Positions 24,572-41,279 of a stretch of 64,000 nucleotides of DNA are shown one piece after another. A program made the position numbers and the translations under genes. Below the pieces are notes generated by a model that saw only the letters and a list, made by a program, of their open reading frames with translations, searched no databases and was not told where the DNA came from. The stretch lies in the IMG/VR virus record IMGVR_UViG_3300010401_000003, positions 9,645 through 73,644 of that record. One strand, given 5' to 3'. The first letter of the stretch is position 1. Each line of letters opens with the position of its first letter. The DNA is from a virus.

Positions 24572-25387
24572 TCACCGGGTGAGGAAGATCGCCGCGGCGG
24601 CGACGGCTAGAACGGCCAGGACGATGGGGCCCGCGCTCGAAGAGCCCTGACTCGAGCTCGGCGCGGGAGTCGGCGCCGGCGGCACCGGGAGGGTTTGCGC
24701 CGGGGGCGGCAAGGGCGCCGGGGTCACCGGGATCGGCGGCAGCGGCAGCGGCCATGGAAGCTCGGCTGGGTAGCCCGGTGGCCGCGCTGGAGGCCACGGA
24801 GAGCACGGCCAAGTGCCCGGGGGCAAAAGCGAGCATGCGGGGGGCGGAGTCGCGGGAAAAGCGCCGGTGGGGGGCCAGTCGAGGCCGGTCGCTTCCTTCC
24901 AGCCAGGCGGCTCCGGAACGCCCGTCCAATTTTGCGGCGGCGTGGTTTGCCCCAGATGCCCGCTTTTGAGCGTCGTGACGGCGGCCCAGGACGCGCAGTC
25001 TTTCTGCCAAAATCCCGCATCAGTGACGAAGGAAAACGCCTTTTTCCAGTATCCCTCGCCCGCGTACCACGCCTCGATCGTGGTCGACGTGCCGGCGGGC
25101 AAGTGCGCTTTGACCCACTCGCACGCGGCGACGCGCGGATCTTCGGTCGGTTCGAGCTCGAGGTTTCCCGAGCTCGAGAAGCCGTTGACGACGAAGTGCC
25201 AAACCGGCCGCCTCGGCATAAGGGCCGAGGTGCGCGTCACAAACACTTGAGCGGGATTCGGGAGGGAGGAGCGGACGAGCCTCGGGGTAGTCGTTTGCAC
25301 CTGCACGCGCGAGGCGCTCGGCGCGACGACCACGGCGGAACGCACCACTTGTGCGCTCAGCGCGCCGGACCATTTCAGGAGGGCCAT
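24572..25387 (-). CDS. Tail-anchored membrane protein (W-leader family)
   Basis: MALLKWSG leader, internal GHLGQ, Pro/Trp-rich region, C-terminal TM. Confidence 0.7.
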   Translation of the reverse strand: MALLKWSGALSAQVVRSAVVVAPSASRVQVQTTTPRLVRSSLPNPAQVFVTRTSALMPRRPVWHFVVNGFSSSGNLELEPTEDPRVAACEWVKAHLPAGTSTTIEAWYAGEGYWKKAFSFVTDAGFWQKDCASWAAVTTLKSGHLGQTTPPQNWTGVPEPPGWKEATGLDWPPTGAFPATPPPACSLLPPGTWPCSPWPPARPPGYPAELPWPLPLPPIPVTPAPLPPPAQTLPVPPAPTPAPSSSQGSSSAGPIVLAVLAVAAAAIFLTR

Positions 25388-25911
25388 TAACTTTTATCCT
25401 TGGCAGTCGCGAAGGTTTGCACGAAGAGCTCGACGGCGGCGCTCGCCGCAAGCGAGTACTTCATGAGGGTTTTCGGATCGTGGACGCCGACGGCAGCGAG
25501 ACCGATGCCGACTTCGATCGCACGGGAGACGAACGACACGAAAAGCCGGAGCCATGCGCCGGACTTCCCCGCTCGGATTTCGTCGGCAATCTCGCCGGAC
25601 GGAAGCGGCTTTTGGCCGCGGTTGATGTAGGCGAAGGTCAGAACCGACGCTTCGATCGCGCCTCCGGCCGCGAGCGAGTATTTCACGAGGTCCGTGCCGC
25701 GCGCGCCGGCCGCTGCGAGTCCGGCTCCGATGATGAAGGACCGGCCGAAGTAGTGGAGCATCACGGCCCAAAAGGCGCCTGGCTCTTTCTCGACGAAGGC
25801 GTTGGCGCTTTCTTCCGACGGCAGCGTCACGCCCAAAAAGGCGCGATCGATCGCGCGATCGGCGACCGCGATCGCCGTCGTGTCGATTGGGGTGTTCCAC
25901 CGGAGCGCCAT
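25387..25911 (-). CDS. Internally duplicated multi-TM protein (W-leader family)
   Basis: MALRWNTP..AFLGV; halves repeat GAGLAAAG..KYSLAAGGAIE / GIGLAAVG..KYSLAASAAVE. Confidence 0.65.
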   Translation of the reverse strand: MALRWNTPIDTTAIAVADRAIDRAFLGVTLPSEESANAFVEKEPGAFWAVMLHYFGRSFIIGAGLAAAGARGTDLVKYSLAAGGAIEASVLTFAYINRGQKPLPSGEIADEIRAGKSGAWLRLFVSFVSRAIEVGIGLAAVGVHDPKTLMKYSLAASAAVELFVQTFATAKDKS

Positions 25912-25920
25912 GGCCTCATT

Positions 25921-26328
25921 CTACCTTGAATCCGGGTCCTTTCCGGTGGGTGTGCGGGATCGGTAGCCGGTTTCGGTGCGCTGGAGACGCACGGCGGGTT
26001 GCTCGCGGTCGCTCGAGGGGCGAAATCCTCCGAGGCGCTTGATTCCGTCGATGATCGATCGGTGTTCTTCGGCGGCGCTCTCGCCGGTCTGCTCGATGGA
26101 AGCCGTCAGCCCCTGGACGGCATTGGTCAGGGCTTGCAGCGCCTTGGTGTTGTCGCCGATCTGATCGGAGAGCTCCTTCATGCGCTCGAGCGTGCCTTCG
26201 ATCAGACGCTCCTGGTTTTTGGCGGAGGACTGCACGTAGATGATCGCGATCTTTCCCGCGAACCAAATCACGACGAGCAGGACGCCGAGCGCGCCGAATT
26301 GCAGGAGCGTGGGATCGATCACGTTCAT
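25921..26328 (-). CDS. Putative holin (single TM + coiled coil, BhlA-like layout)
   Basis: MNVIDPTLLQFGALGVLLVVIWF; ATGA-coupled directly after the endolysin. Confidence 0.5.
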   Translation of the reverse strand: MNVIDPTLLQFGALGVLLVVIWFAGKIAIIYVQSSAKNQERLIEGTLERMKELSDQIGDNTKALQALTNAVQGLTASIEQTGESAAEEHRSIIDGIKRLGGFRPSSDREQPAVRLQRTETGYRSRTPTGKDPDSR

Positions 26329-39510: not shown

Positions 39511-39520
39511 CGCTCGCCCT

Positions 39521-40513
39521 CTAGAGTAGCGCCCAAATCACGAGCGCGACAATGCCGGCGCCGATCGCCAAGGGCGCGATGCTCGATCCGCCGCCTCCGC
39601 CGCCGCTCCCGGCGGCGGCGACATTCTTGAAGTCGATCTGCGATTTCAGCTTTTCGATGAGCGGCTCCATCGATTTGCTCGGGAGCTCCGTCAAGCACTG
39701 CGGATCTTCACCGTGCATGTTGCTCGGCGTCTTCGGGTCGAAGACGTTGAAGAACCCCGCTGGGCAGTCGCCCTTACTCTGAAACCAGCTCGAGGCATTC
39801 TCCATGCGCCCGACCGCGAACCAATCGATCGGCTCGCCGGGCTTGGCGATGGGGCCGAAGTTACCGTTGAAGTAGGTCAGCCAAACGTAGTCCTTGCAGG
39901 TCAGCTTTTCGTTGACGATGCCGAGCTTCTTGGCCACCGCGCACTCGTCGAGCGCCGTCTTCGTCAACTCGAACTTCTCATACGCTTGCGCCGCCGCGTA
40001 GCGCTCGGCGCTCGGCGCAAACTTCGAGAACACCGGCGCCGGTGGCAAGCCCGCTTCAGTCAGCGCCACGTCGGAAGCGCCTTGGCTGATGGCCAGATCG
40101 CGGAGCGTCAAATACGACTTGACGGCAAGGATGCCCTTGGCCGCGCGCTTGGCACGCGGGGCGGTGAAGTCGTTCCAGGTTTCCGAAACCAAGTCCTCCA
40201 TGGTCGATCCCTTGGCCACAGGGATCGATTTTCCGATGAAGCCGCCGATGATGCCGCCCAAGATCGCGCAGCCGCCCGCGACTGGAGCAGTCACTACGAA
40301 GGCCGAGCACGCCGCAGCGCCACCAATTGCGCCGCCCACCTCGCCGTAGGCTTTCAGATCCGCCGAGCTCGTGCCGCCCTTCCGCTCGATGATCTCTCTC
40401 GTGAGCGGATTGGTTGCCTTGTCCATTCCGGAATACGCGCCGAGGCCGACGGGCCGCCTCGAGCTCGGCGAAAGCACGAGCGGGACAGACGCATTCCAGA
40501 TAAGGGCGGACAT
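39521..40513 (-). CDS. Tail-anchored protein with glycine-zipper hairpin (W-leader family)
   Basis: MSALIWN..PVGLGA; GGAIGGAAAC..GGCAILGGIIGGFIG; Gly linker; C-terminal TM. Confidence 0.7.
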   Translation of the reverse strand: MSALIWNASVPLVLSPSSRRPVGLGAYSGMDKATNPLTREIIERKGGTSSADLKAYGEVGGAIGGAAACSAFVVTAPVAGGCAILGGIIGGFIGKSIPVAKGSTMEDLVSETWNDFTAPRAKRAAKGILAVKSYLTLRDLAISQGASDVALTEAGLPPAPVFSKFAPSAERYAAAQAYEKFELTKTALDECAVAKKLGIVNEKLTCKDYVWLTYFNGNFGPIAKPGEPIDWFAVGRMENASSWFQSKGDCPAGFFNVFDPKTPSNMHGEDPQCLTELPSKSMEPLIEKLKSQIDFKNVAAAGSGGGGGGSSIAPLAIGAGIVALVIWALL

Positions 40514-40532
40514 CGCCTCACCAGTTTAAGAG

Positions 40533-41279
40533 CTAGCCGGGACAGCGAGCAAGCGTGAGCGCTCTTTCGAGCGTCCGATCACCCGGCTTCCACACGACGC
40601 GAGCTCGGAGGCCGCGCAAGCCGTCAACGCCAATGAAAACGCCCTTGTCGACGAAGTTTAGCCGGTCGGGATCGAAGGACCTTCCGCCGCCCGCGCCGAT
40701 GCACACTTCGTCGTCGCAAATCACCTTCACGTTTGGGACGGAGAGGATCCGCTCGTAGGTGAAGGGGACGCATTTGCCGAGCTGGTAGTCGGTCGACGGA
40801 TCGCCGTAGTGCCAGCGGCCGTCCAAGTGCGCGGCGCACAGCACGTGCTCGATGTTGTGCTCGTCGTCGTACGCATGGCCCACCACCAAGGTGTGGATCC
40901 CGACGGACATCCAAGCCGCGCCGAGGAGCGTCGCGACGCCGTCGCAATCGTCGCCACGAATGCAAACCTTGTTGGGGTTGGTCTTCGGATCGCACGCGAG
41001 CAAGGTCGCCGCCGGCATGTATTCGGCCCCGATTGGGTCGGGCACCCATAATTTCTTCTGGACGGCGGAAAGGAGAATGCGCGCGCGGTCGTTCGGGGTC
41101 TTGGCGCTCGAGAGGCCGCGTTCGCGGGCCACGTCGAGCATTTCGATCGCCCAAGTGCGCACGCCCGGATCGATCGCGCCCTTCGAGACGCGCTTGGCCA
41201 CTTCGTCGAGCGAGCTATTGACGCCCGCTTTGCCGAATGGGTGCTCGCGTTCGGTTACAGCAGTCCAAGGGGCGGGCAT
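40533..41279 (-). CDS. Transglutaminase-like cysteine protease/transferase
   Basis: Intact triad GDDCDG (Cys), EHVL (His), WHYGDPS (Asp); first gene of the structural operon. Confidence 0.8.
   Translation of the reverse strand: MPAPWTAVTEREHPFGKAGVNSSLDEVAKRVSKGAIDPGVRTWAIEMLDVARERGLSSAKTPNDRARILLSAVQKKLWVPDPIGAEYMPAATLLACDPKTNPNKVCIRGDDCDGVATLLGAAWMSVGIHTLVVGHAYDDEHNIEHVLCAAHLDGRWHYGDPSTDYQLGKCVPFTYERILSVPNVKVICDDEVCIGAGGGRSFDPDRLNFVDKGVFIGVDGLRGLRARVVWKPGDRTLERALTLARCPG

Follow-up and report, generated by a model that had tools for sequence, protein, structure and literature searches.

The window analysed here is a 64,000-nucleotide stretch of viral DNA corresponding to bases 9645-73644 of one 73,644-bp contig (IMG/VR virus record IMGVR_UViG_3300010401_000003), in which minus-strand genes are packed tightly from ~41279 to 23713 and in which a short N-terminal sequence, referred to below as the leader, is common to 12 otherwise mostly unrelated proteins. 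The first gene of this structural cluster (40533-41279, minus strand) encodes an enzyme of 248 amino acids (aa), predicted to have a transglutaminase fold with a Cys-His-Asp triad. A 123-bp repeat is common to both contig ends, and the contig is therefore most likely a complete circular or terminally redundant element; its GC content is 61-67% throughout. The term operon, used for the cluster in an initial annotation of this DNA, reflects tight same-strand packing only; promoter and terminator scans gave signals at background level. Searches of Pfam and PHROGs returned no match for the enzyme, for the capsid-like protein described below or for six neighbours. The exception in this cluster is an endolysin-like protein (26325-27122, minus strand) with no leader and no anchor, which matched PG_binding_1 (Pfam E 4.2e-10) and PHROG endolysin families.

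All 12 leader starts with a Trp residue that the initial annotation had listed are present, and all lie on the minus strand. In the order of the cluster, the leader proteins are one of 330 aa (39521-40513), with MSALIW...RRPVGLG, cargo and a C-terminal transmembrane segment (TM); a microprotein of 53 aa (39349-39510), consisting of MAILRWSGQ... and a TM; one of 288 aa (38486-39352), with MKKLRWLGQ followed by PAD and with a TM near the C-terminus; and one of 403 aa (31879-33090), with MALVKW..., an internal GEGRLGQ, a coiled-coil/Cys-rich part, a TM and an Arg-rich tail. These are followed by proteins of 123 aa (31511-31882; MIQSWSGQVALRPNGRLG followed by A, six Cys with CX3C spacing, C-terminal TM), 192 aa (30936-31514; MIVAWRGQVG...VRWNGRLAAPVGVG followed by L, ten Cys, C-terminal TM), 206 aa (30312-30932; MGMRWLEKKVDFLG followed by ALDAP, C-terminal TM) and 549 aa (28656-30305; MSMRWLEEKVQVLGAPGQLG followed by M, an internal DLGA/LPDA junction, a TM at residues 395-422 and a 127-aa basic tail). 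The remaining four are a protein of 230 aa (27964-28656; MSKLLWLGEVRVLGARQVGLG followed by A, hydrolase-like cargo, C-terminal TM), a second microprotein, of 47 aa (27095-27238; MILRWEKPMTLG followed by L, and a TM), a protein of 174 aa (25387-25911; MALRWN...AFLG followed by V), whose hydrophobic segments do not form a simple tail anchor, and a protein of 271 aa (24572-25387; MALLKWSGA..., Pro-rich linker, C-terminal TM). Two outliers at 11767 and 2656 have no Trp, as had been claimed, and were left out of the count of 12.

Each of the 12 leader starts is the start codon nearest to the stop codon of the preceding gene, with gaps of -4 to +19 nt, which supports them as true starts independently of the motif. 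When starts were assigned to all 90 predicted genes by a motif-blind rule, taking the codon closest to the upstream stop, Trp was found at residue 4-6 in 12 of the 22 genes between 40600 and 24572 and in 3 of the 68 others (Fisher p = 7.3e-7), one of these three being the enzyme gene itself (MPAPW). In a conservative test, in which any in-frame start in the first 40% of each open reading frame (ORF) was accepted and three leader genes were missed, a loose pattern was found in 11/21 versus 11/67 genes (p = 0.0018) and a stricter pattern in 7/21 versus 4/63 (p = 0.0031). The expectation that the motif would be commoner in the cluster than in the other genes of the window was thus borne out. In the window the Trp box reads hydrophobic-x-W-x-G, with [LM]-[RKL]-W as the form used by this clade. 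The codons of the leader motif vary synonymously (CTG/TTG/CTC/CTT; CGC/CGA/CGG), which indicates that the signal acts at the protein level, and a DNA-level signal as the source of the motif was rejected on this ground. Whole-gene paralogy as the source of the N-terminal likeness was rejected as well, because pairwise comparison detected cargo similarity in two pairs only and the cargos are mostly unrelated.

It could be argued that the likeness results from chance, from the picking of convenient start codons, or from a DNA- or RNA-level signal such as translational coupling. For 4 of the 12 genes the start that had been picked was an internal one, a search of all frames of the whole contig finds loose patterns at background level (21 plus-strand and 46 minus-strand occurrences), and a position matrix of the motif, described below, is non-discriminating between clades. 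However, motif-blind starts give p = 7e-7, the codons within the motif vary synonymously, and relatives keep the motif at orthologous starts with different residues and codons, so that this explanation is largely refuted and appears very improbable.

A hydrophobic segment by the Kyte-Doolittle scale is present in all 12 leader proteins, and in 10 of them the last such segment lies 32 residues or less from the C-terminus. The exceptions are the protein at 28656-30305, with its 127-residue basic tail, and that at 25387-25911, with a 33-residue tail; the plan with a C-terminal TM that had been proposed for nearly all of these proteins describes ten of them and not these two. By hydropathy, a C-terminal anchor is absent from all 12 cluster proteins without a leader. 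For Sec and Tat signals the check was a hydropathy scan only, by which no Sec signal peptide was found, high values in the first 40 residues being confined to the TM of the 47- and 53-aa proteins. In 10 of the 12 leader proteins no NCBIfam sorting domain (LPXTG, PEP-CTERM, GlyGly-CTERM, MYXO-CTERM and similar) was detected at E <=1. The hydrolase-like protein at 27964-28656 is paralogous to the endolysin-like protein at 26325-27122, with 32% identity over 176 aa starting after the leader. The hydrolase-like domain thus occurs with leader and anchor in the former and with PG_binding_1 and no leader in the latter, and because it exists both tagged and anchored and untagged and wall-binding, the tag is linked to the C-terminal anchor and not to the cargo domain.

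The cargos of the proteins at 31511-31882 and 30936-31514 consist of repeated C-x3-C pairs (6 and 10 Cys), a pattern that points to helical hairpins stapled by disulfides and, by extension, to an oxidising location or a metal site.

The association with membrane proteins raises the possibility that the leader is a non-Sec signal that moves the N-terminal domains across or into the host membrane and is clipped at a Leu-Gly (LG) box during or after transfer. According to the positive-inside rule, proteins with a TM and a basic tail would have their N-terminal domain outside, and the leaders are followed by no N-terminal hydrophobic region, yet the proteins have a C-terminal TM and basic residues; several cargos have six to ten Cys, and the tag is strictly linked to membrane proteins. 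On the other hand, none of the cluster genes, few of which match any family, was recognised as encoding a transporter, the box is also found on the enzyme, which is predicted to be soluble in this genome, and internal copies of the motif, described below, are unsuited to a terminal export signal. An export or insertion leader is on balance improbable.

Related loci were collected from viral, genome and metagenome collections by alignment-based scans, and one record was extended by 40 kb. The conserved gene order is the enzyme, 38486-39352, 37899-38486, 36037-37887, the capsid-like gene, 33995-34708, 33090-33980 and then the tagged proteins, and wherever a related locus is long enough for a judgement, enzyme and capsid module are found in synteny. 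Where the enzyme shares 47-55% identity (L011, L015/L035, L016, L023, L024 and L027 with its extension), successive genes open with M-x-[VI]-x-W-[VL]-[KG]; in many of them a second box, R-V-[EQ]-W-L-G, comes next, before P-S/T-G-R/T-L-G. The Trp box of the relatives reads [VI]-[TEQN]-W-[LV]-[GK], is often doubled, and is followed by (G)-R/T-L-G-[Q/A]. Altogether 48 leaders were gathered across 8 loci, two of which (L016 and L024) are near-duplicates. The tag is kept at the starts of orthologous genes although the proteins are only 30-45% identical, and orthologues of the 38486-39352 protein in seven related viruses retain W...LGQ. Such conservation argues that the leader is a real module under selection. 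The microprotein at 39349-39510 is homologous to a C-terminal extension of the enzyme, comprising a Trp box and a TM, in five relatives (P0032, P0052, P0043, L015 and L027), and its homologues are separate small ORFs in four others (L016, L024, L023 and L011).

The LG box was analysed in the window and in the relatives. L-G occurs within residues 7-36 in 8 of the 12 window leaders, compared with 22/77 control N-termini (p = 0.013) and 43/237 internal control windows, and in 28 of 31 leaders of relatives (p = 2.6e-9), so that the signal is weak in the window alone and strong across relatives. In 37 leaders the last LG is followed by Q (14), A (10), V (5), L (3) or another residue. The domain starting at LGAL in the 30312-30932 protein recurs in the 28656-30305 protein at residues 214-327, again after DLGAL, and the two copies share 42% identity over 116 residues. 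In the family of the 31879-33090 protein, an internal junction consisting of a W-box and RLGQ (GEGRLGQ in the window; RRVEWLGSRLGQ and RRVQWIGRTGRLGQ in the L015 and L027 orthologues) separates the N-terminal domain from the coiled-coil, Cys-rich, anchored part. In three orthologues of the 39521-40513 protein, those in G001 and L035 among them, a conserved AY[ST]G[MY]DK stands directly after LG/VG, behind leaders of 25, 18 and 17 residues. The LG box therefore marks the starts of conserved cargo domains, both N-terminally and internally. Furthermore, the Trp box is distinct from the LG box, and the two may be fused or lie apart: the 38486-39352 protein begins with MKKLRWLGQ before PAD in the window, whereas its L027 orthologue has MTTTKW, 12 residues, and MLGQ before PAD, which places the W and LGQ 13 residues apart.

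The enzyme at the head of the cluster has 52 homologues, and C112, H135, H145, D160 and W230 are invariant in all 20 aligned sequences; the Cys-His-Asp triad that had been read in this gene is accordingly intact, as C112, H145 and D160. An AlphaFold model was obtained with a mean predicted local distance difference test score (pLDDT) of 81.5, residues 211-233, including W230, scoring below 50. In this model C112 (within DDCDG) opens a helix at 112-125, H145 lies in a strand at 143-152 and D160 follows a strand at 155-159. VIA-align comparison gave 19 chains at Z >=8, including 3kd4 (Z 12.0, root-mean-square deviation (rmsd) 3.2, 146 aligned), factor XIII (Z 11.5), transglutaminases TG3 and TG2 (Z 10.9-10.3), PNGase (Z 10.2), LapG (Z 9.5, rmsd 3.9, 140 aligned) and PeiW/PeiP (Z 8.0), and the best Foldseek match had an E of 4.3e-5. 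The modelled structure thus places the product in the transglutaminase-like superfamily (papain-like fold), with the triad in the order Cys-His-Asp.

Sequence searches recovered this relationship only below threshold. Pfam Transglut_core (PF01841) gave no match for the window enzyme at E <=0.01 and matched 7 of 20 homologues, all sub-threshold, with a best E of 0.0075; a profile search of PDB sequences with the enzyme found nothing related at E <=1. The BTLCP/LapG Pfam family was absent from the matches of 20 family members, and the enzyme N-terminus (MPAPWTAVTEREHPFG) has no hydrophobic stretch and so lacks the periplasmic signal peptide of BTLCP/LapG. The order Cys112-His145-Asp160 also differs from the His-Glu/Asp-Cys order of adenain (peptidase C5, clan CE), and no adenain/Ulp1-like chain is among the 50 VIA-align matches listed or the Foldseek matches listed.

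The C-terminal tail of the enzyme carries a Trp box of its own, RARVVWKPG, in which the invariant W230 stands in the hydrophobic-x-W context; the tail is presumably flexible, judging from the model. In L015, L027, P0032, P0052 and P0043 the enzyme runs on through a second W-L-G box into a TM helix, the counterpart of the separate 53-aa gene at 39349-39510. The enzyme also has an N-terminal Trp at residue 5 (MPAPW), with an aligned Trp in most homologues (..PW[KT], ..W[KN]PK), and may thus have a Trp box at both ends.

A 602-aa protein encoded elsewhere in the window (3443-5251, minus strand) includes, at residues 389-518, a paralogue of the enzyme in which the catalytic Cys and His are replaced (hhalign probability 98.2%, E 4e-14), with GSD-LQ in place of DDCDG and DERIL in place of IEHVL. 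The same protein has Gln-rich repeats, with a match to Pfam Zein (E 1.9e-6) that is probably compositional, and an Arg-rich C-terminus.

The resemblance of the model to factor XIII and to transglutaminases 2 and 3 (Z 10.3-11.5) bears on a different function for the LG box, in which a true transglutaminase would join the Gln after LG (WLGQ, RLGQ) to Lys residues of capsid or membrane proteins and so staple membrane proteins to the shell. The residue found most often behind the last LG is Gln (14/37). However, 23 of the 37 leaders have no Gln there (A 10, V 5, L 3 and others), and it is W and L-G that are invariant, not Q. To our knowledge, most tested prokaryotic members of the transglutaminase fold are hydrolases. 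Since Gln follows the last LG in only 14 of 37 leaders, Gln-donor cross-linking is no general rule, and the suggestion of the initial annotation that the frequent LG-Q supplies Gln acyl donors was not upheld. LapG, which has the same fold, is described as a proteinase (PMC3032545). Cross-linking is quite improbable as the function of the enzyme.

The cluster also includes the capsid-like gene (34750-35934, minus strand), which encodes a protein of 394 aa with no leader. It falls in a family of 78 representative clusters in public data. Its AlphaFold model (pLDDT 84.4) is beta-rich, with ~16 strands between residues 40 and 332, and its best Foldseek matches are viral jelly-roll capsid proteins, all of them weak, with SPV1 at E 2.8e-4 and with PRD1/PR772 P3 and vaccinia D13 at E 0.02-0.07. 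VIA-align values were Z <=5.8, with PRD1 P3 at Z 5.0 over 173 residues and single-barrel capsid proteins at Z 5.2-5.6, both in the noise range of the tool. A double jelly roll is likely, not proven, from these models. The virus is read as tail-less with a jelly-roll capsid, and the virion probably has an inner membrane, because many small membrane proteins are encoded. No Pfam match to an FtsK/HerA-type packaging ATPase was obtained among the 30 window proteins scanned.

Considered together, these observations are explained best, with a probability that we would place just short of even, by a leader that serves as a virion address tag and as a processing site cut by the transglutaminase-fold enzyme. 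The leader would mark the membrane proteins of this tail-less virus, which probably has an inner membrane, with an N-terminal tag of two parts. The first part of this tag, the Trp box, would act as an address by which tagged proteins dock at the assembly site on a partner common to them all, for which the capsid lattice, a vertex or a scaffold are candidates, and would thereby select membrane proteins for entry into the particle. Its second part, the junction (G)-[RT]-L-G before Q, A, V or L, would be a putative processing site for cleavage by the Cys-His-Asp enzyme, the product of the first gene of the cluster, which would itself reach the assembly site by means of the Trp box in its own flexible C-terminal tail. 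A more specific form of this proposal is a sorting code in which the Trp box docks tail-anchored proteins on the jelly-roll lattice or its vertices, thereby settling what enters the inner membrane of the virion, and a transglutaminase-fold protease brought in by the same box then cuts at Leu-Gly and so matures the particle; stated so precisely, the proposal is tentative and rather doubtful. Co-folding of the enzyme with residues 1-40 of the 31511-31882 protein gave a score of 0.00 and a mark of 0.32, without controls, which speaks neither for nor against binding.

Several findings weigh against this explanation. Three loci with an enzyme that is 25-36% identical (L006, L028 and L030) have the enzyme and tail-anchored proteins, and no Trp box was seen in them in the 10-kb flanks examined, which indicates that retention of the enzyme does not depend on the tag. 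A Trp-box position matrix trained on 31 leaders of the relatives, with triplet-shuffled decoys, failed to rank the window leaders above decoys: the best window score was 9.7, and no window leader scored >=10, where decoys averaged 1.3. The clade of the window and that of the relatives share little beyond hydrophobic-x-W. L-G is missing from residues 7-36 in four of the 12 window leaders, and the enrichment in the window alone is modest (p = 0.013). The enzyme is itself tagged and, in L015, L027, P0032, P0052 and P0043, is C-terminally anchored as well, so that it could be another tagged cargo and not the processor. Moreover, because the wall-cutting enzymes PeiW/PeiP of archaeal viruses match at Z 8.0, a role at the cell wall fits the fold equally well.

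The leader could alternatively be a permanent linear motif that binds a common virion partner and is never removed. The enzyme would then be one among the tagged virion proteins, for example a cell-wall endopeptidase that acts at entry beside the tagged hydrolase-like protein at 27964-28656. In addition to the Trp box and the anchors of the enzyme, its retention with no Trp box in the distant relatives and its resemblance to viral pseudomurein endoisopeptidases, this possibility is favoured by the presence of the motif at internal positions, both where enzyme and anchor are fused and in the 31879-33090 family, which implies that the tag need not be a terminal propeptide, and by the catalytically dead paralogue (3443-5251), which could be a pure binding module. 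However, the LG box stands exactly at the starts of conserved domains behind leaders of variable length, which is more typical of a junction or processing site than of an epitope for binding; the second box after the Trp box would have no obvious role under docking alone; and no signal peptide or wall-binding domain was detected in the enzyme. Docking without cleavage is the foremost alternative, to be taken seriously if on the unlikely side.

The explanation by an address tag with a processing site agrees in part with the initial annotation, which had proposed that the leader is a sorting tag with an LG site for the enzyme: the leader as a module, its link to the anchor, the LG boundaries, the triad and the synteny are in its favour, and the tagging of the enzyme itself and the distant loci with no Trp box are not. 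Likewise, its expectation that motif and enzyme would occur together in related contigs holds for the loci with 47-55% identical enzymes and fails, within the 10-kb flanks examined, in L006, L028 and L030. Its remark that no system with this layout had been described stands in so far as our literature searches found no description of such a leader/enzyme system, and is qualified by functional analogues in bacteriophage T4, adenovirus and LapG. The likenesses to these systems are functional analogies and do not amount to membership.

In bacteriophage T4 the capsid targeting sequence (CTS) is removed by the prohead protease gp21, which does not have the transglutaminase fold. The internal proteins of T4 are described as having only this targeting sequence in common, which directs their entry into the assembling particle and has been used to load foreign proteins into particles (PMC3012670). 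The likeness is that a short N-terminal sequence is the sole common part of diverse virion proteins. The difference is that T4 is tailed, has no membrane and brings soluble cargo into a scaffolding core, whereas the cargo here is membrane-anchored and carries a two-part tag with a putative cleavage.

Adenovirus protease (AVP) recognises Gly-based sites, (M/I/L)XGX-G and (M/I/L)XGG-X, and adenain has the catalytic order His-Glu-Cys and the fold of clan CE. AVP is reported to cleave pIIIa, pVI, pVIII, pVII, p-mu and pTP, so that numerous precursors of minor capsid and core proteins of a jelly-roll-capsid virus are trimmed by a cysteine enzyme during maturation (PMC12090768). The present system differs in its Cys-His-Asp order, its transglutaminase-like fold, its putative (R/T)-L-G site before Q/A, the preceding Trp box and a bacterial host. 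LapG, a transglutaminase-like C-H-D proteinase, is described as removing the N-terminal ~108 residues of LapA between Ala108 and Ala109, and its Cys-to-Ala mutant as inactive (PMC3032545). As there described, LapG resembles the enzyme proposed here in that a transglutaminase-like C-H-D enzyme cuts an N-terminal piece off a membrane-retained protein, with small residues flanking the site. It differs in being periplasmic and cellular, with one or a few adhesin substrates under cyclic di-GMP control, whereas here there would be about a dozen putative substrates and the enzyme is itself tagged.

Two further comparisons can be made. Double-glycine leaders are cut by the papain-like C39 peptidase domains of ATP-binding cassette (ABC) exporters, and have in common with the present leaders that a short Gly-ending N-terminal sequence on unrelated small proteins is removed by a papain-like cysteine peptidase. 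They differ in export through an ABC transporter, none of which was seen here, in the motif (...GG/GA) and in their cargo of small secreted peptides as opposed to tail-anchored proteins. PRD1-type phages have many small membrane proteins, including a wall-cutting enzyme, in the inner membrane under a jelly-roll capsid, and are similar in that virus-encoded small membrane proteins are sorted under such a capsid. We know of no common leader or maturation enzyme in PRD1-type inner-membrane phages, and the literature searches found no paper on an N-terminal motif of tail-anchored proteins in PRD1-like internal-membrane bacteriophages. What is classed as new here is the placing of the idea of a shared leader and a viral maturation enzyme on tail-anchored membrane proteins, with a different enzyme fold.

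Other genes of this genome yielded the following observations. Within the cluster, the 616-aa protein at 36037-37887 (minus strand) has a long Arg/Lys-rich N-terminal region and a hydrophobic segment at 238-257, is conserved in relatives from ~residue 200 on, and matched no Pfam family at E <=0.01. Upstream of the enzyme gene, a 631-aa protein (42296-44191, minus strand) has long runs of PPGYPPQQGYPPQGG-type and poly-Pro repeats and no Pfam match; homologous Pro-rich proteins of ~500 aa precede the enzyme gene in relatives. Five minus-strand genes (23713-24333, 1789-2367, 7808-9475, ~9478-11136 and ~7116-7496) open with a similar module of ~20 residues, exemplified by MGRIRDALKAASSQLQLTSP, MGLIRDALKAVGGQLQLSSP, MSGLVEDVLKATSGQIQLSS, MGNILDIAKSLASELQLASR and MATAIEDIVKNVGSQVQLGS, and have different bodies. 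The module is also found in relatives (G001 extension) and looks like a common docking module for exchangeable fibres or spikes.

A block of sugar-modification genes at 12225-21971 encodes a GDP-mannose 4,6-dehydratase (E 1.8e-107), a C-methyltransferase (E 2.7e-48), a 953-aa multi-glycosyltransferase and two group-1 glycosyltransferase-like proteins (below Pfam cut-offs), suggesting that the virus may glycosylate its own proteins or alter the surface sugars of its host. A 509-aa protein (45610-47139, minus strand) with a sub-threshold match to REP_ORF2-G2P (E 3.6e-4, 21.2 bits versus a cut-off of 27.8) may be a rolling-circle replication protein, which would be unusual for a 73-kb genome. The non-structural part also encodes a C-5 cytosine DNA methylase (49306-50472, minus strand; E 3e-39) and a NUDIX protein (60585-61490, plus strand; E 1.8e-14). 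With regard to the host, a metagenome-assembled genome (MAG) titled Gemmatimonadaceae includes a copy of the contig and a Gemmatimonadales MAG includes a distant relative, which hints at the host, though binning may explain it.

It is poorly understood how inner-membrane viruses select the proteins of their membrane. Tailed phages and eukaryotic jelly-roll viruses are well known to mature by proteolysis; we know of no description of such maturation for the bacterial tail-less relatives of jelly-roll viruses. Because the tag is short (6-28 residues) and portable, and because there is only one candidate enzyme, whose active-site Cys is obvious, the question lends itself to a direct test in E. 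coli. Should the tag prove to be an address, foreign proteins could be loaded into such particles by means of it, as has been described for the T4 targeting sequence (PMC3012670). The family is not rare: public data include 52 homologues of the enzyme and 78 clusters of the capsid protein, most of them from soil and groundwater assemblies of uncultured origin. If the sorting code is true, it would be the first maturation-protease system in bacterial tail-less membrane-containing viruses, convergent with adenovirus AVP/pVI on a different protease fold and widespread in soil viruses.

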